Shown piece by piece: positions 38,491 through 47,192 of a stretch of DNA of 64,000 bases. The stretch is from an uncultured Desulfospira sp. (lineage in GTDB: Bacteria > Desulfobacterota > Desulfobacteria > Desulfobacterales > Desulfobacteraceae): NCBI GenBank assembly GCA_963663165.1, contig OY760175.1, forward strand, positions 3,584,001-3,648,000, read 5' to 3'. The notes below the pieces were generated by a model, which was not told the DNA's origin, did not search any database, and was given only the letters and a program-made list of their open reading frames with translations. Both the position numbers and the translations under genes were made by a program. Numbering within the stretch: position 1 is the first letter of the stretch; every line of letters starts with the position of its first letter.

Positions 38491-40098
38491 TCAGGCTTTG
38501 ATCTTTCTTCTCATGCCGGCAAGGCCGAGAAGGCCGGCACCCAGAAGGCAGAATGCGCCGGGAACCGGCACGGATGAGGCAGCGGTGACGGCATAGCTGC
38601 CCAGCTCTGTGGCGGTAAAACTTGCATAGGTGCCGCTAAAATTAAGGTCTTCGGCATCGTATTCAACCCAGGTACCATCATTAAGATACCAGACAGTCAG
38701 ATCCGAAAGGTTCACGTCTGCGTCTGCGTAAAGAGAAAGATAAACAGGGCTCTCTTCGCTGACCGTGTACCCTTCGGTGGAAAACACCCAGGCGGACAGA
38801 AGCTCGTAATCGCCTCCGGCAAGGGCTGTTTCAAGCCCGGTCAGATCTGTCCCGCTCAATGCGGCTGCAGTGAAACTGATTTCAGTGGAAGCGGTTGCGG
38901 CAAGAAAGCCTGCACCCGCAGACATACCGGTGCTGCTGTCCGTGATCAGGGCCCGCTGCCGGGAAGACAGATCAAGGGAGACAGTGTCACTGCCGGCAGC
39001 ATTTGTTACGGCATCATACACGGTGACCGTATTGGTAGCGGCATCCAGGACCCCGCCCAGGGCCAGGATTGTGCCCTCGCCGGTAAGGGTTCCATATGTC
39101 AGTGGATTGTAGGAACCGGAAGTGGCGGAAGCCCCGGCCACCAGGCGTAAAGTCCCGTTGTTGGTAATGGTGCCGTCGGAGCCCGCGGAAAGGGAGCTGT
39201 TCACATCAACGGTGGCAGCCGAACTGCTGTTGATGCTGACGGTGCCGGCAGTTACCGCACCGCCGTTGGCAACGGTCAGGCTGCTTTGGCCGTTATAGCC
39301 GACATAAAGTTTGTTGTCTGTACCAAGCGATGACCCTTCCCCGTCAATGGTCGCACGGGTGGTGGATCCGGATGCGTATCCAAGATAGACAACAGAATCA
39401 CTTGCCGTCGTTGCGACGGAACCGCCGTTAGTAATGAAAATCGAAGCCGCACCGGTGCTTTGGGAACCGGTATATAAAAGTCTGGAGATCTCCCATGAGG
39501 AGCCTTCACCGTCAATGATTGCGGTGGCGTCTGAAACCTCACCCAGATATGCAAGGCTGCTTGTCATCGAGCCGCCGTCTAAAATACTGATCTGTGCAGA
39601 CGTATCAACTTTGTGAGCCGCATAAAAAGGAGAGCTGCTCGAAAATGAGGAACCCGCCCCGGAGATGGTCAATGCGGCAGCGGCTCCCTCGTAGCATGCC
39701 AGGTATGTTGTAGCTCCTTGCGTTACGGTGGCCCCGTCGGTGATATTTAAATATCCGTTGCCGTACCGCCCGATAAACATTGTTCCACTGCTGGTCAATG
39801 AGGAACCGGATCCATCCACGTTAATCGTCCCCTCGCTGCCGGCCTCATAGCCGAAGTAGGCTTTGCTGACTGCCATGGTACTACCGTTGTTGATGGTGAC
39901 AGACCCTTCATCGGAATATCCGATGTACGCTTTAGTAGAAGATGTCCAGGTGGCAGGATCGTCCGGATAGACGTCTCCCGTGTACAAAATATCTGCCTGA
40001 ACAGCAGAGGTCATAATAAATAAAGAGGCCAGGATAAGGGCCAGGCCGTTAAATACTTTGGGTAATTTTTTTTGTTTCTTCACTTTCTTTTTCCTCAT
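38491..40098 (-). CDS. Surface protein with T5SS/PEP-CTERM-associated beta repeats and a VPxP-CTERM anchor
   Basis: Signal peptide; repeated G..G.G.L.I..G..V / IDGEGSSW units; C-terminal VPVPGAFCLLGAGLLGLAGMRRK. Confidence 0.85.
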   Translation of the reverse strand: MRKKKVKKQKKLPKVFNGLALILASLFIMTSAVQADILYTGDVYPDDPATWTSSTKAYIGYSDEGSVTINNGSTMAVSKAYFGYEAGSEGTINVDGSGSSLTSSGTMFIGRYGNGYLNITDGATVTQGATTYLACYEGAAAALTISGAGSSFSSSSPFYAAHKVDTSAQISILDGGSMTSSLAYLGEVSDATAIIDGEGSSWEISRLLYTGSQSTGAASIFITNGGSVATTASDSVVYLGYASGSTTRATIDGEGSSLGTDNKLYVGYNGQSSLTVANGGAVTAGTVSINSSSAATVDVNSSLSAGSDGTITNNGTLRLVAGASATSGSYNPLTYGTLTGEGTILALGGVLDAATNTVTVYDAVTNAAGSDTVSLDLSSRQRALITDSSTGMSAGAGFLAATASTEISFTAAALSGTDLTGLETALAGGDYELLSAWVFSTEGYTVSEESPVYLSLYADADVNLSDLTVWYLNDGTWVEYDAEDLNFSGTYASFTATELGSYAVTAASSVPVPGAFCLLGAGLLGLAGMRRKIKA

Positions 40099-40140: not shown

Positions 40141-40308
40141 TCAATCTGCAAGGGTTGCCTTGTAAGCGGCATACCAGAGATGATAGTCGGCAAGATCAAT
40201 ATCGCCGTCATTGTCAAAATCAGCGGCTTCAATGTATCCGCTGTCACCTTCCCGGGTCTTCAATGCACTGCGCAGAATACGCATGTCAGCCCGGTCCGTA
40301 CAAAGCAT
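40141..40308 (-). pseudogene. 55 aa dockerin-like ORF or gene remnant (not in the ORF track)
   Basis: MLCTDRADMRILRSALKTREGDSGYIEAADFDNDGDIDLADYHLWYAAYKATLAD* aligns with the C-terminus of 43557..44543. Confidence 0.75.
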
Positions 40309-40525: not shown

Positions 40526-41276
40526 TTTGGCTATAACAATTTGTATTTATGAATTCTCGGATTTTTTTGCTGAATGATAAAATTTTTAATTTTCAGGCTA
40601 TAGCCTTCCGGCCCGATCCTCCTCGCGATCGCTATCGAAATCGATCATCATTCCTTCCTGTCCCCCTGCTGTATGGCTTAATAAGCATCGCTGCAATTTG
40701 ATCAGCGTCGTTGTCGGGTTTCGGTCCTCCACCCGACGAGTCCGGTCGAAAAGGCGGCTCCTCGGTAGGTCGGGTGCATGATTGGAGTACAACATATGAA
40801 ATAACCAGGCTGTATGCCGGTGTAACAGACCGAAAATACGGATAACAATCCGCCAAAAGGGAAAAAAGGACCGCCGGCTTTTTGAGCATGGTTAAATAGC
40901 CGGGCTTTCAGCATTTTTGCAGGTTGTTGTAATATCAACCCTATCGAAAATCCTATGTCAGACCAGCATGAAGTCAGGTCCTGAAGCATAAAAAAAGTAA
41001 TATTTCAAGACCTGGCCCTTTTCACATTTTTTTTGCAAAAAGACCGTTGATGTGATATCTGAAGCCTTTCTGTTAGGCTCATAATCAAATTAAAAATCCA
41101 TGATGCGCCGAAAGAAGCGGGAATTTTAAGTTGCCTTCAAAGCACGCCAATGGAAGCATATTTCAATATGTGCCCCTTAGCGTAACGGGGATGGCCAACC
41201 AAAAGACAAGCATCCGGGAGGTTGTATTTTGATCATGAGTCTTAAATCATGTTTCATAGAAAGGAAGTTCTACACA

Positions 41277-41849
41277 ATGGGTACAAAGTTTTTTGCATGT
41301 ATGTTTGGCGGATTGATGATTTTAGCAAATTGTTCACTGGGGTTTGCCGGAACTGTCTGGCTGGATGAAGTCGTTTTGTTTGACCAGCCTTCAGGCGCTT
41401 CAAATGATGGCGGGCCTGCAAGCTATGCGTTGGGGGAAAATGACGGAAACCATGTTTCCATTGACATTCCGGAAACACTGATTCTGTCGTTTACAGACAA
41501 TACCGCGCTTGACGGTGAGGGCGATGATATTAAACTGTATCAGGTGATTTCAGGTGATTCGTATATTGATGTCTATGGCAGCATGGACAACATCACTTAT
41601 GTATATTTAGGCAGGACAAGCGGTAATGCCACGTATGATCTTACTGACTATGCGGGTCTTGACTATGTGAATTATCTTAAATTTGTTGGTCTGGATGATG
41701 GGGGGTCCGCTGACGGATACGATCTTGATGCAGTGGAAGCACTTAATTCCGGAGACCATATTTCCAGCGTTCCTGTCCCAGCAGCAGTATGGCTTTTAGG
41801 TTCCGGCCTGATAGGGATGATTGGCATCAGGAGAAAGAAACGGGAATAA
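41277..41849 (+). CDS. VPLPA-CTERM (PEP-CTERM-like) surface protein
   Basis: Signal peptide; acidic beta domain ending GYDLDAVEAL; VPVPAAVWLLGSGLIGMIGIRRKKRE. Confidence 0.85.
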   Translation: MGTKFFACMFGGLMILANCSLGFAGTVWLDEVVLFDQPSGASNDGGPASYALGENDGNHVSIDIPETLILSFTDNTALDGEGDDIKLYQVISGDSYIDVYGSMDNITYVYLGRTSGNATYDLTDYAGLDYVNYLKFVGLDDGGSADGYDLDAVEALNSGDHISSVPVPAAVWLLGSGLIGMIGIRRKKRE

Positions 41850-42825: not shown

Positions 42826-43467
42826 ATGAAAAGAGTTTTCAACGTAGTGTTAGCTCTGAGTTTTGTAATCGCTGTATCCGGCTTGCTGTCGCCGGCGGCC
42901 GCGGCAACGGTCACTGTTTATACAGACGAAGCTTCGTTTGCCGCCACCCTTGGTTCTTACTATTATGAGGATTTTAGCAACTTTCCTGAGACTGGGGAAG
43001 AAGGACCTGAATCGATAGACATGGGGCCGGAAAATGGTTTCAGCTACACAATGAAAGGTGATGACAGTTCTCTTTATTACAGCGATGGGGCTATATCCGT
43101 ATGGGAGGACTATGATGCCCTTACAATTGAATTTACAGGTGATGCGGTAACCGCCTTTGGTGGAAATTTCTGGCCCACTACAGCTGAACTGACAAACAGA
43201 GTATTTGACATTACCATTGATATTTCTTTTGCTGACGGCAGTAGTTATTCTTACACAATAGAAGATGCGGATGTGAATACCTTCATTGGTTTCAGCAGCT
43301 TAGAAGCCATCTCCTCATTCACCATTTCCGAAACCGTATATTACCTGTATCCCACAGCAGATAACCTGTACGTCGGCAGTACTTCCTCAGTGCCTGTTCC
43401 GGGTGCCATATGGCTCATGGGCGGCGGCCTTTTGGCCCTTGCCGGCATTCGCCGCAGGAACGCCTGA
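42826..43467 (+). CDS. VPLPA-CTERM (PEP-CTERM-like) surface protein
   Basis: Signal peptide; acidic beta-rich domain; VPVPGAIWLMGGGLLALAGIRRRNA. Confidence 0.85.
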   Translation: MKRVFNVVLALSFVIAVSGLLSPAAAATVTVYTDEASFAATLGSYYYEDFSNFPETGEEGPESIDMGPENGFSYTMKGDDSSLYYSDGAISVWEDYDALTIEFTGDAVTAFGGNFWPTTAELTNRVFDITIDISFADGSSYSYTIEDADVNTFIGFSSLEAISSFTISETVYYLYPTADNLYVGSTSSVPVPGAIWLMGGGLLALAGIRRRNA

Positions 43468-43556: not shown

Positions 43557-44543
43557 ATGGTTTTTAACAGATTCGGTAAAATGATTTTCACCGTATTGGC
43601 GCTGTCGCTGTTATTTTTCTACGGTTCGGCCCTGGCCGGCCCTTACACAGAGAACTCGGTGTACTATACCAGTTCCAAAATCAAGGCCTGGGCCACGGGG
43701 TATCTGAACTACCTGCCCTCTGATCCCCTGGACGAAAGCCTGTACGGGACCTATGCCCAGTATGCCGGGGTTTATAAAACGTTTCAGACACCGCAATACG
43801 CCACCGGCCAGGCTGATAATAAAATTGTCACCCTTGGCGACCTTTACCAGGAACAAATCGATGCCGGTGCCGCCTGCGGTGAGATCACCCTGACCTTTGA
43901 CCTTCCCATCGCCAACGGGGATGGCATCGACTTTGCCGTATACGAGAACGGTTTCTGGAATACCAGCGTATCACCCTATGGCATGTTTGCTGAACTGGCA
44001 TACGTATACGTTTCCACTGATGGTGAAAACTGGGCATTGTTTCCCGGCATTTCTCTGACCGAAGGCCTTGTTGGTGCCTACGGGTGTATTGAACCGACAG
44101 ACGTTTACAACCTGGCCGGCAATTATGCCAGGTATACCGGAACCGGGTTTGACCTGGACGATTTGCAGGACCATGAACTGGTTCTGTCAGGCCTTGTGGA
44201 CCTCAATGAAATCAACTACGTCAAAGTGGTGGACATCCCCGGCAGCGGCGATTATCTCGATTCCCAGGGTTACCCGATCTACGACGCCTGGGTCACCTGG
44301 GGATCAGGCGGGTTTGATCTGGACGCCGTGGCTGTCCTTAATGTCAAGTATCCGGACGGCGACCTTAGTGAGGACGGTACGGTAGACCGGGTGGATGCGA
44401 TTATCATCCGAAGCGCCATCGGATCTTCTCAGGGGGATGATGCCTATGCGGAAGAGGCGGATTACGACGAAGACGGTGACGTTGATTTTGCCGATTACCG
44501 GCAGTGGTACAAATATTACAAGGCGTTCATAAGTGAAAACTGA
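43557..44543 (+). CDS. Secreted cell-surface protein with a C-terminal dockerin-like domain
   Basis: Signal peptide; ITLTFD.PIANGDGIDFAVYENGF / GGFDLDAV domain; duplicated Ca-loops GDLSEDGTVDRVD and ADYDEDGDVDFAD; no membrane anchor. Confidence 0.8.
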   Translation: MVFNRFGKMIFTVLALSLLFFYGSALAGPYTENSVYYTSSKIKAWATGYLNYLPSDPLDESLYGTYAQYAGVYKTFQTPQYATGQADNKIVTLGDLYQEQIDAGAACGEITLTFDLPIANGDGIDFAVYENGFWNTSVSPYGMFAELAYVYVSTDGENWALFPGISLTEGLVGAYGCIEPTDVYNLAGNYARYTGTGFDLDDLQDHELVLSGLVDLNEINYVKVVDIPGSGDYLDSQGYPIYDAWVTWGSGGFDLDAVAVLNVKYPDGDLSEDGTVDRVDAIIIRSAIGSSQGDDAYAEEADYDEDGDVDFADYRQWYKYYKAFISEN

Positions 44544-44611
44544 TTTAAAAATTGCCGATGACGGCCAGGGCCGCCCTGGTTACCCGGCCAAGCATCGGCC
44601 CGAAACAAATA

Positions 44612-44650
44612 TTGAAAGTCTTCTCAGGATGTTAGTGAGACTTTCTTATA
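44612..44650. repeat. Family D palindrome, single core
   Basis: tgaaagtcttctcaggatgttagtgagactttc, the reverse complement of the 16046..16080 core. Confidence 0.75.
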
Positions 44651-44670
44651 AAAAAAAGGAGATGTGATCA

Positions 44671-45237
44671 ATGAAAAAAATAACGGCAATAACCATAGGT
44701 CTTCTGGCGGCTCTTTGTTTTGGCGGATCATACGCCATTGCCTCACCTGGTATCAGCCTGGATCAGACCGGGTATACCGGGTATATCGGAACGGTTTTCC
44801 AGGTGGAAGTCTGGCTGGATGCAGACGACTTAACGGATTTTGAACTGCTCTCTTTTGGGTTTGATGTCCTGGTTGAAGATGAGTCTGTCTACCATTACGC
44901 CGGGTATACCCTGGGATCGGATTTTGAGTACCTTGGATTTTACCAGGAAGACTACGTGGGCGGCATGGCCTTTCCAAGCGTAACCGATGATGAGGTCCTG
45001 CTGGCCATCTTGTATTTTACCATTGTGGGCGAAGGTTCCTGCGATCTGGACATCAGTGCTGAATATGACGGGTCCATGTACGGCCTCTTTTATCTGATGA
45101 CAGACACCTTCGAGGAAGCCGGTTACAGCTTGTCCTCCTCGGTTGCACTGGGGTCTGCCGTGCCTGTTCCGGGAGCCGTATGGATGATGGGCGCGGGACT
45201 TGTGGCCCTGGCAGGCATCCGCCGCAGGAACACCTGA
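44671..45237 (+). CDS. Cohesin-like domain protein with a VPLPA-CTERM anchor
   Basis: Signal peptide; GTVFQVEVWL...LLSFGFDV...VLLAILYFTIVGEGSCDLDI strand pattern; VPVPGAVWMMGAGLVALAGIRRRNT. Confidence 0.7.
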   Translation: MKKITAITIGLLAALCFGGSYAIASPGISLDQTGYTGYIGTVFQVEVWLDADDLTDFELLSFGFDVLVEDESVYHYAGYTLGSDFEYLGFYQEDYVGGMAFPSVTDDEVLLAILYFTIVGEGSCDLDISAEYDGSMYGLFYLMTDTFEEAGYSLSSSVALGSAVPVPGAVWMMGAGLVALAGIRRRNT

Positions 45238-45322: not shown

Positions 45323-46633
45323 TTATTCCTCTTCTTCAGGCAGGTTCACTTCTGCCAGGTCCGGGCCCAGATAAATCCGCTCGCCTTCTCCGAGCACACC
45401 CAGAGCAAGGGCCAGCAGGGTCCATAAATGGATCGTATGATATTTGCATTCATAATGCTCGGCCAGTTTATGAATCTGGTCATGGCAGTTGTGGCAGGGG
45501 GTCACACAATAATCCGCGCCCGTGGCCACGATCTGGTTTTTCTTGGTCCGGCCGTACTCCAGACGGGCTTCATTGTAGCCGGACTGGAGATACCCGCCGC
45601 CACCGCCACAGCAGAAGTTATTAGAGTAGTTCGGCGTCATATCAATAAAGTTTTCTTCACCGACGCAGGCTTTGACCACAAACCGCAGATCTTCGGCCAG
45701 GGCATCCCCAAAGCTTTTGCGAACCTGCTGGCAGGGATCCTGAACCGTAAAGGTGACTTTAAGGTCTTTGTTCCAGTCGGAACTCGGGTTCAGCTTGCCT
45801 TCCCGCATCCATTTGGCATAATACCGGACCATGGGGGCAATTTCGAGATCTGTTTCAATGCCGAACTTCTGCTGGCCTTTCCATACGGAAAACGTGGAAT
45901 GGCCGCACTCGGTATTCAAATATACTTTACAGCCCAGTTCCATGGCGGATTCAATGGTGTTCCGGGTCACTTTTTCCCAGTTTTCATTATCTGCAAGGAA
46001 CATACAGTAGTTTTCACCGCCCCAGCCCCGGGTGCTGTAGGTCCAGTCTGCTCCCACAATGTGCAGAATTTTCCACAGGGGAACCATTTCTTCGGGTTCC
46101 ACACCGGGTTCACGGGAATTCTGGCTTAAGAAAAAATGAGCGCCTTCCTTATTGACGGGCGCCTCAAGATTTTCCCAGCCCGGCTGGTCCTCATGAACCT
46201 CATCAAGAATGTCACCGACCACCCACTCAAAATCTTCCTCAGAAATGCCCATGGCACTGCCGCTGGTATTTCTAAGGGCCATGTCACAGGAACCGACAAT
46301 GCCTTTGGGCCGTTCGTCCCGGGGCCACAGCTGCCGGGCCTCGTAGACCATTGCCGCGATGTCGATCTGCATGGGACAGACATAGAGGCAGCGCTGGCAC
46401 TGGGAACACATCCAGACCCACGGGTGCTTGGTCAGTTCTTCGTCCATCCCCAAAGCCACCATCCGGACAAATTTACGCGGATCCATATTTTCCAGTCCGG
46501 TTGCCGGGCAGCCGGAAGAGCATGCGGCGCATGTCAGGCACAAATTAAGGTTGGCGCCATTGGGCAGCTTGTCCATCAGATTCTTTTTAAAGGCTGCCTT
46601 TCTTTCTTTTCCAAGTTCTATTACCTCACTCAT
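45323..46633 (-). CDS. HdrD-like (Fe-S)/CCG-domain oxidoreductase
   Basis: CLTCAACSSGCP, CSQCQRCLYVCP, ECGH, QDPC, CCGGGGG, CHNC. Confidence 0.85.
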   Translation of the reverse strand: MSEVIELGKERKAAFKKNLMDKLPNGANLNLCLTCAACSSGCPATGLENMDPRKFVRMVALGMDEELTKHPWVWMCSQCQRCLYVCPMQIDIAAMVYEARQLWPRDERPKGIVGSCDMALRNTSGSAMGISEEDFEWVVGDILDEVHEDQPGWENLEAPVNKEGAHFFLSQNSREPGVEPEEMVPLWKILHIVGADWTYSTRGWGGENYCMFLADNENWEKVTRNTIESAMELGCKVYLNTECGHSTFSVWKGQQKFGIETDLEIAPMVRYYAKWMREGKLNPSSDWNKDLKVTFTVQDPCQQVRKSFGDALAEDLRFVVKACVGEENFIDMTPNYSNNFCCGGGGGYLQSGYNEARLEYGRTKKNQIVATGADYCVTPCHNCHDQIHKLAEHYECKYHTIHLWTLLALALGVLGEGERIYLGPDLAEVNLPEEEE

Positions 46634-47192
46634 AACATTCTCCTCTAAAAGGGTTGCTTTTCGGGTCAATATGCCTTTTTATGCGCATTTAAAAAAATGC
46701 CCTGTCCATAACTGTTTCCCCGGGTATCCGGCAAAGCTGCCAATGGCCGGACACACTGAAGCTCTCTTTACTGAATATACCTGAATCAAACAGATGAATG
46801 CTGGGAATAACACCAAATAGATAGCATCAATTTTTCAGGTTACTTAGTGCCGTCAAACCCGGGCAGGGAAGTGTAAAGCTCCCCTCATGTAAAACCGAAA
46901 AATCGAAGCATATAGACTTTTCCTGGTAGATTAAAAGCACAAAAAAATAGATAGAAAAAGTAGATAGGCTTGTCAAAGTGATAATACGAATACCTTACAG
47001 GAATGATTATTGAAAACAATTATAACCAAATCTTTTAAATGAAACCGATGACCTTTCAACTGAATTGAACTGGCCTGTCCGGGCCTGACTGTCTCGCCCA
47101 TTATCCTTCAGGCAAAACGCCCTGAAGGTGAGGGAAGCAAAGCCCCCCTCACCACAACAGGCGGCAAGGCCGTTTCAGGATCTGCGTTAAGA

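Follow-up and report, generated by a model that had tools for sequence, protein, structure and literature searches.

What might keep a secreted protein at the surface of a double-membraned bacterium when it ends in a dockerin and has no sorting tail of its own? The question is raised by two adjacent genes, P1 and P2, of an uncultured Desulfospira sp. (GenBank assembly GCA_963663165.1, contig OY760175.1). They lie in a stretch of 64,000 nucleotides (positions 3,584,001 - 3,648,000 of the single-contig, 6.74-Mb genome) that was analysed as a whole and is called the window below. P1 encodes a secreted cargo protein that ends in a dockerin. P2 encodes a small protein in which a single cohesin-fold domain is followed by an exosortase sorting signal. 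The gene pair is real and well supported, whereas the binding of its two products to each other is predicted. On balance we favour the reading in which P2 is a surface anchor and holds the lectin-like P1 by means of a predicted Ca-dependent cohesin-dockerin bond.

Both genes and all of their parts are on the forward (+) strand, and both open reading frames (ORFs) were confirmed at their coordinates. P1 (43557..44543) is 328 residues long. Its predicted signal peptide, read from the translation (43557..43637, residues 1 - 27), ends in ALA followed by GPY, and the consensus of the P1 family likewise has A-x-A and then GPY at the end of the leader. The leader is followed by the cargo domain, a discoidin or galactose-binding-like jelly roll (43638..44351, residues 28 - 265), and by the dockerin module (44358..44498, residues 268 - 314), which consists of two Ca loops and then a DYxxWxxxY helix that reaches the C-terminus. 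The initial annotation of this DNA had described P1 as having a signal peptide and no membrane anchor, and the translation agrees, as no further hydrophobic segment is seen in it beyond the leader. A spacer of 127 bp (44544..44670), with an AAGGAG ribosome-binding site at 44657 - 44662, separates P1 from P2 (44671..45237). The 188 residues of P2 comprise a signal peptide, the cohesin-fold domain (44743..45156, residues 25 - 162, 138 residues) and a VPLPA-CTERM sorting signal (45160..45228), which is made of VPVPGA, a hydrophobic helix and RRR. A terminator scan found no terminator-like site between the two genes. A terminator-like hairpin of 14 pairs, 9 of them G-C, is positioned just 3' of P2 (45254..45285, +; identified by a consensus scan only). 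The short spacer with its ribosome-binding site and without a terminator-like site, together with the hairpin after P2, makes co-transcription of the two genes likely. Both proteins appear to be exported by Sec.

The only Pfam family matched on P1 is Dockerin_1 (PF00404). It covers residues 268 - 314 with 25.7 bits in the protein scan, against a gathering cut-off of 22.9 bits, and the same site scores 28.9 bits in the genome scan. The duplicated Ca-loop module that the initial annotation had noticed at the C-terminus is therefore a dockerin. Its loops, DLSEDGTVDRVD and DYDEDGDVDFAD, are 12 residues long, carry D or S at positions 1, 3, 5, 9 and 12, and are each followed by a helix, as judged from the sequence. 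The P1 tail was aligned with 12 others, to which it is 26 - 70% identical. G14, D15, D19, D26, D48, D52, G53 and D59 are invariant in the 13 tails, and Y60, W63 and Y67, which come after the second loop, are nearly invariant. The tail is predicted to bind a cohesin in a Ca-dependent manner.

A search of PDB sequences with P1 gave dockerins as the best matches (2y3n_B, E 0.005; 5lxv_B, E 0.021), while the EF-hand proteins calcineurin B and centrin ranked last (E 0.3 - 0.9). The plain EF-hand reading of the tail was ranked low on account of this order and of the conserved helix after the loops. The same findings bear on a broader alternative, namely that the module is a partnerless Ca-binding element, either stabilising or EF-hand-like, and that P2 is an unrelated structural matrix protein. 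The conservation of Y60, W63 and Y67 exceeds what Ca binding alone would need, and in P1 and its paralogue the module takes the place of a sorting tail. Such an element would fit a dockerin score merely 2.8 bits over the cut-off, the weak matches of a related tail (L019) to EF-hand families, and those homologues of the P1 cargo domain (12 of 120) that have dockerin-like loops and a PEP-CTERM tail of their own and would need no separate anchor. All in all, we hold a module with no partner to be improbable.

The domain encoded from position 44671 had been called cohesin-like in the initial annotation, with a check of the two proteins against Pfam profiles in view. This check divided: PF00404 matches P1 (25.7 bits), but the Cohesin profile, PF00963, matches nothing on the P2 domain at E<=10. 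The likeness was borne out at the level of the fold. A word-index homologue search had returned just P2 and one of its two in-genome paralogues, which are 60% and 55% identical to it. A profile of the three in-genome copies, searched against 1.84 billion representatives, found 130 proteins at E<=1e-3, of which 22 were at E<=1e-10; nearly all of the 130 are 180 - 200 residues long. The family alignment (n=129) contains the domain from the window, the two paralogues and 126 of the hits. Left out were P0001 (P2 itself), P0003 (240 residues, replaced by the paralogue domain from its locus), P0053 (572 residues, partial repeats only) and P0131 (528 residues, E 1e-3). Pfam PEP-CTERM matches 95 of the 129 members, and Cohesin weakly matches five, with a best E of 5.6e-4.

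The AlphaFold2 (AF2) model of the P2 domain that was calculated from this alignment has a predicted local distance difference test score (pLDDT) of 95.5 and a predicted template modelling score (pTM) of 0.89. The model is all-β, with ten strands, and agrees with the cohesin fold, a flattened, nine-stranded β-sandwich of the jelly-roll type. Foldseek matched it to 59 PDB entries at E<=1e-3. Cohesins lead these matches (5lxv_A, E 8.6e-6; 2jh2_C, query TM-score (TMq) 0.71) and take all but two of the first 25 ranks. With VIA-align, cohesins occupy every one of the first 35 rows (Z from 13.1 down to about 9.8), and non-cohesin sandwiches, including pilins and BBSome, begin at rank 36. The best of these matches is 2vo8 (Z 13.1, root-mean-square deviation (rmsd) 2.4 Å over 123 of the 138 residues), and the list includes 1ohz_A (Z 10.6) and the archaeal 2xdh (Z 10.5). 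At the sequence level, hhalign linked the 129-member family to four small in-genome VPxPx-CTERM proteins with 87% probability (E 3.9e-6), and to one of the four taken alone with 93.8% (E 1.7e-7). Three of the four score 31.6 (above the cut-off), 23.1 and 21.1 bits on Pfam Cohesin, and one has no match. From the structural matches of the model and this profile link to Cohesin-scoring proteins, we conclude that the fold of P2 is that of a cohesin and that P2 is distantly related to cohesins, outside the coverage of Pfam. That P2 binds a dockerin is suggested by the conserved gene order, which is the only support for this step.

The third P2 paralogue (L016/L009) is a single frame of 246 residues at genome positions 1993987 - 1994727 (-). 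The frame stays open after the first sorting tail and, about 50 residues on, enters another VPxPx-like tail, which is partial. It belongs to a series of seven or more tailed genes (1.989 - 1.998 Mb), and no dockerin gene adjoins it.

The C-terminal tail of P2, VPVPGAVWMMGAGLVALAGIRRRNT, scores 26.3 bits on the VPLPA-CTERM model TIGR03370, whose cut-off is 25.35, and 29.0 bits in the genome scan. The sequence of VPVPGA, transmembrane segment and RRR was thus rightly taken for a PEP-CTERM-like sorting signal in the initial annotation, which had also remarked that the window holds no exosortase gene. Indeed, all three Exosortase_EpsH matches of the genome (0.58, 1.45 and 5.90 Mb) are outside it. 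The genome-wide search identified the one at 0.58 Mb (577959 - 579410) as exosortase D as well (TIGR04152, 601.3 bits against a cut-off of 400), the enzyme that NCBIfam names as specific for the VPLPA-CTERM signal. TIGR03370 finds 33 tails in the genome at E<=0.01; 19 of these, including four in the window, are over the cut-off. A looser VPxPx-CTERM regular expression (regex) yields 72 tailed frames. About ten VPxPx-CTERM proteins of the genome are cohesin-like, and one at 5.63 Mb is a significant cohesin by Pfam. We infer that exosortase D processes the tail of P2 and that P2 is located on the surface or in the matrix.

A different role for P2 would be that of an export or folding helper in the passage of P1 across the outer membrane, with no lasting anchorage. 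A dedicated helper, too, would be kept in a tight pair with varied cargo. P2, however, bears its own sorting signal, which no fewer than 19 further proteins encoded in the genome also have, its fold is that of a known docking module, and neither Pfam nor NCBIfam matched a chaperone or secretion family on it. A helper function is accordingly the least probable of the readings that we weighed, and we give it very little credence.

The association of dockerins with tailed proteins extends beyond this one locus. The genome-wide count that the initial annotation had called for gave 23 Dockerin_1 matches in 19 frames. Eight of the 19 have a VPxPx-CTERM frame on the same strand not more than 300 bp downstream, compared to 22 of 3,837 frames of at least 250 residues, which served as the background. 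The pairing is therefore beyond chance (binomial p 8e-14). This value belongs to the count of eight, in which the follower at 0.81 Mb, missed by the regex, was added by hand; without it the count is 7/19. A second copy of the whole P1-P2 pair is present at 5.28 Mb, each of its genes being 60% identical to its counterpart in the window. The followers at 5.28 and 5.97 Mb are cohesin-like; for the one at 0.72 Mb the likeness is weak (15 bits on Pfam; hhalign with the P2 family, 4.3%). The other dockerin cargoes that were scanned, a subset of the 19, include subtilase, metallophosphoesterase, Ig-like and TSP3 modules.

The pair also recurs outside this genome, as a synteny comparison proposed earlier has now established. 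Three samples were searched: 41 relatives, 401 genomes of the phylum and 401 genomes of the class, the last with a domain-only profile. The phylum query contained the tail, and most of its matches, being to the tail only, were set aside. Outside this genome, 17 loci have a match that spans the P2 domain, and the family is patchy, being present in 11 of the 401 genomes of the class sample, this genome included. The gene context was read from 1.5-kb flanks. One locus (L049) is cut by a contig end; in 11 of the 16 that could be assessed (L013, L014, L017, L019, L031, L044, L045, L046, L047, L050 and L051), a gene ending in a dockerin-like tail is directly upstream of the P2 relative. The upstream proteins of L013, L019, L031 and L051 pass the Dockerin_1 cut-off. 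Across the loci the cargoes are unrelated to each other: PKD, MopE-like, IgGFc-binding-like, NHL, SdrD-B-like and PD40 propeller modules have been recognised. The dockerins beside P2-family genes share the subtype signature seen in the 13-tail alignment.

Two of these loci have additional features. In L048 (674 - 1297, +; genome G605) a gene for an IS1595-family transposase occupies the usual place of the dockerin gene before the P2-family gene. The protein that precedes the P2-family gene in L031 (516 - 1268, +; genome G183) contains both a weak Cohesin match (21.5 bits) and Dockerin_1 (28.3 bits). With both modules on it and a tailed cohesin encoded next to it, such a protein would qualify as a true adaptor, and an assembly in two tiers would become possible.

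A number of observations weigh against an anchor that holds P1. Some of them concern the fold. The two paralogues, like P2, are without a match to Pfam Cohesin at E<=10, and P2 is not among the matches of the genome scan with that profile at E<=1. The first profile, of three sequences, was linked to the best in-genome cohesin with a probability of 6%, and the profile of the whole family had 13 matches at E<=10 among PDB sequences, none of them to a cohesin. The cohesin-like β-sandwich, moreover, is also found in proteins that bind no dockerin. Other observations concern the gene pairs. The follower at 6.10 Mb resembles a short jelly-roll domain (1.2% in hhalign with the P2 family), and the followers at 0.81, 3.55 and 6.11 Mb have no profile link to the P2 family (0.1 - 0.2%); the same low values were obtained for the follower at 5.96 Mb and the neighbour at 5.286 Mb. 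Since some followers are not cohesin-like, the adjacency may partly reflect a clustering of surface-protein genes. With 19 dockerin frames and about ten cohesin-like proteins in the genome, P2 could have its true partner in a dockerin other than that of P1. In the other genomes, no dockerin gene was found in the 1.5-kb upstream flank of 5 of the 16 loci (L020, L021, L022, L026 and L048). Two of the 11 upstream proteins are just below the Dockerin_1 cut-off (L050, 22.3 bits; L047, 20.0 bits) and another five have no Dockerin_1 match at E<=0.01; these five were called dockerins by their loop motifs and by alignment with the P1 tail. Finally, to our knowledge, the final location of exosortase substrates has hardly been studied, and that of exosortase D substrates not at all.

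In another reading, P1 and P2 are independent surface proteins that happen to be encoded in an island of exosortase D substrates. P2 would then bind something else, such as another dockerin protein of the genome, a glycan or itself, and P1 would dock to a different cohesin. A clustering of tailed genes is indeed seen, as the window contains four VPLPA-CTERM genes in a span of 7 kb; among the followers of dockerin genes, one or more are unlike cohesins and three have no profile link; and the numbers of dockerin frames and cohesin-like proteins permit cross-pairing. A mere island does not, on the other hand, account for the order of dockerin gene and P2-family gene, which is kept in 11 of 16 loci in spite of changing cargo, for the duplication of the pair as a unit, or for the signature that distinguishes the dockerins next to P2-family genes. 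We regard independence of the two proteins as unlikely, though as the most serious competitor to the anchor reading.

The 238 residues of the P1 cargo domain (28 - 265) match no Pfam family, and no enzyme family was found in the Pfam and NCBIfam scans of P1. The domain is weakly linked to the LIC_13355 lipoproteins of NCBIfam. The AF2 model of the domain has a pLDDT of 95.5 and a pTM of 0.93. Foldseek gave just three matches to it at E<=1e-3, and further ones to discoidin, F5/8-C, CBM32 and the N-domain of galactose oxidase, all with a TMq of 0.46 or lower. The top matches, to the Bacteroides B12-transport proteins 8blw_B and 7biz_B, are too loose (TMq 0.46, rmsd ~11 Å) for a B12-binding function to be claimed. 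The domain can be read as a non-enzymatic, ligand-binding, lectin-like jelly roll, a fold assigned from Foldseek alone at low TM-scores, and its ligand is probably a glycan. The initial annotation, which had seen no recognisable glycoside hydrolase in the cargo, was correct in this respect.

The cargo domain has at least 1,406 homologues, and the C-terminal tails of the 120 nearest were surveyed. A PEP-CTERM-like tail alone is found in 83, dockerin-like loops together with a PEP-CTERM-like tail in 12, dockerin-like loops alone in two, one of which is P1, and neither type in 23. Within the genome, a paralogue of the cargo domain at 2.83 Mb bears the sorting tail directly, and there is one paralogue of the full P1 architecture, at 5.28 Mb (60% identity). 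Most relatives of the cargo bear PEP-CTERM, and this is the strongest indirect argument that a dockerin plus a tailed cohesin is equivalent in function to a sorting tail of the protein's own. In the P1 lineage, a dockerin beside a tailed cohesin appears to have replaced the direct sorting of its relatives.

The 12 homologues with both loops and tail (P0163, P0169, P0179, P0213, P0223 and others) do not conform to a simple either/or rule, and might bind further cohesin-bearing proteins. The NCBIfam model NF041540, 'GC-type dockerin domain-anchored protein', matches 2 of 64 homologues of the cargo domain; its existence implies that curators already treat one type of dockerin as an anchor. P1 itself had no match to NF041540 in the NCBIfam scan. 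A GDGxDF/L-x-hydrophobic-Y motif and an end of the form G-F/Y-DLDAV-x-x-LN are common to the P1 cargo domain (43638 - 44351, +), to the product of another window gene (41229 - 41849, +) and to a protein encoded elsewhere (L008:190 - 612, -), although the pairwise E values are merely 8e-5 and 0.04. By their motifs, the three could be short and long versions of one β-sandwich domain, placed on a dockerin, on a tail, and after a dockerin-tagged subtilase gene, respectively.

The following sequence of events is proposed. P1 and P2 would leave the cytoplasm through Sec. The tail of P2 would then be processed by exosortase D, so that P2 stays on the outer face of the cell or in the exopolysaccharide layer. 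The dockerin of P1 would bind P2, and P1 would thus be displayed non-covalently, not being sorted itself. In this position P1 could bind its ligand, probably a glycan. The word 'adaptor', which the initial annotation had used for P2, does not fit: P2 has no dockerin of its own, and a lone cohesin that ends in a sorting tail is better called an anchor.

The P1-P2 system is not a cellulosome: each anchor offers one cohesin, a scaffoldin is lacking, and the cargo is not a glycoside hydrolase. Instead of a multi-cohesin scaffoldin there is one cohesin in the 188 residues of P2, and the four matches of Pfam Cohesin in the genome scan are single ones, in frames of 178 - 232 residues. Plant-cell-wall-degrading enzymes were found neither in P1 nor in the other dockerin proteins that were scanned, again a subset of the 19.

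The closest functional parallels are the single-cohesin envelope anchors OlpA and OlpC of Clostridium thermocellum (PDB 3ul4 and 4dh2) and ScaE of Ruminococcus flavefaciens (2zf9), each of which holds a dockerin partner, as is proposed for P2. The P2 model matches their cohesins in Foldseek (4dh2, E 2.2e-5; 3ul4, 1.0e-4; 2zf9, 3.4e-4) and in VIA-align (3ul4_A, Z 10.3; 4dh2_A, Z 9.7) with a sequence identity of 7 - 15%. These anchors are attached by SLH domains or by an LPXTG sortase signal to the single-membrane envelope of Gram-positive bacteria. P2, unlike these, has a VPLPA-CTERM signal for exosortase D, and its cargo is no plant-cell-wall enzyme. The best structural matches of P2 are the non-cellulosomal cohesins of Clostridium perfringens glycoside hydrolases (2vo8, Z 13.1; 2jh2, 12.4; 2w1n, 11.6), and the Archaeoglobus fulgidus cohesin 2xdh is non-cellulosomal as well (Z 10.5). 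These cohesins are parts of larger secreted enzymes or archaeal, and have no exosortase signal, whereas P2 stands alone with a sorting tail. The PEP-CTERM/exosortase system (TIGR03370 and TIGR04152) is represented by the signal on P2 and on three neighbours and by the matching exosortase in the genome. In its known substrates the functional domain is directly on the tail. On P2 the tail instead bears a docking module, which is predicted to recruit the functional protein in trans.

Two surface complexes have been proposed, solely from genomes as here, for non-cellulolytic bacteria of the Gram-negative type whose secreted proteins bear cohesins and dockerins. For freshwater Planctomycetes, the passages of PMC6461901 on the 'planctosome' propose a cellulosome-like complex with a lamin-tail domain as anchor. 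The complex of 'Ca. Stygibacter' (Cloacimonadota), in the corresponding passages of PMC8542988, is proposed to be anchored by a C-terminal domain of type IX secretion. The anchors proposed there are large multi-domain or multi-cohesin proteins; P2 is a single cohesin of ~190 residues encoded pairwise with its cargo. Cohesins and dockerins that are not part of cellulosomes have been known for years, and the passages on them in PMC5244752 and PMC9012536 treat their function as open. In a search of full texts, no paper was found that joins dockerin or 'cohesin domain' with PEP-CTERM, that uses the phrase 'GC-type dockerin', or that describes an exosortase-sorted cohesin paired with a dockerin-tagged protein. 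Dockerin and exosortase do co-occur in one paper, where the relevant passages treat them separately.

The surroundings of the pair contain three more VPLPA-CTERM genes. The nearest (42826..43467, +) encodes a protein of another family, 213 residues from the ATG at 42826, whose tail scores 24.2 bits on TIGR03370 in the protein scan and 27.5 bits when the genome is scanned. The protein, of which a full-length paralogue is encoded at 2.86 Mb, is likely to be a further substrate of exosortase D. The gene at 41229..41849 (+; TIGR03370, 30.7 bits) encodes a short β domain of the GDGxD type that is weakly similar (E 8e-5) to the protein encoded after the gene for a subtilase with a dockerin at 6.10 Mb. 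The third (38491..40098, -) encodes a protein of 535 residues with T5SS/PEP-CTERM-associated repeats (TIGR04393, 135 bits) and a tail that scores 22.1 bits in the protein scan and 27.7 bits in that of the genome. Directly before this gene is the relic of another dockerin (40145..40303, -), in what looks like a decayed layout of dockerin gene and then tailed gene. The last ~53 residues are left, with a stop at the end and 49% identity to the P1 tail; nothing of the protein body was found upstream of the relic. On the other side of the pair, a convergent ORF of 448 residues (45323 - 46669, -) has two Cys clusters of the ferredoxin type, CLTCAACSSGCP and CSQCQRCLYVCP, as well as Cys-rich motifs near its C-terminus. 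By its appearance it is an iron-sulfur protein of the heterodisulfide-reductase type, unrelated to the surface genes.

The pair may be one instance of a general two-gene 'plug and socket' display in double-membraned bacteria. In such a display a dockerin subtype with the DYxxWxxxY helix would dock, and co-evolve with, single cohesins that are invisible to Pfam and that are planted by exosortases on the surface or in the matrix. Cargo families would switch between covalent PEP-CTERM sorting and reversible, Ca-dependent docking, and the P1 lineage would show this switch. Such a display would at last explain what non-cellulosomal cohesins and dockerins do in Gram-negative bacteria. We consider the arguments for and against this generalisation to be evenly balanced. 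Current annotation hides the system, because the P2 family, with at least 130 cluster representatives, is missed by Pfam.

The P1-P2 pair provides a simple hypothesis, open to bench experiments: an exosortase-sorted single cohesin as the surface socket for a dockerin-tagged protein. If it is true, the pair links two poorly understood systems, exosortase sorting and the non-cellulosomal cohesin-dockerin pairs, and accounts for the presence of either a PEP-CTERM tail or a dockerin on the same cargo domain. It would also supply compact natural parts for the display of proteins on Gram-negative cells.

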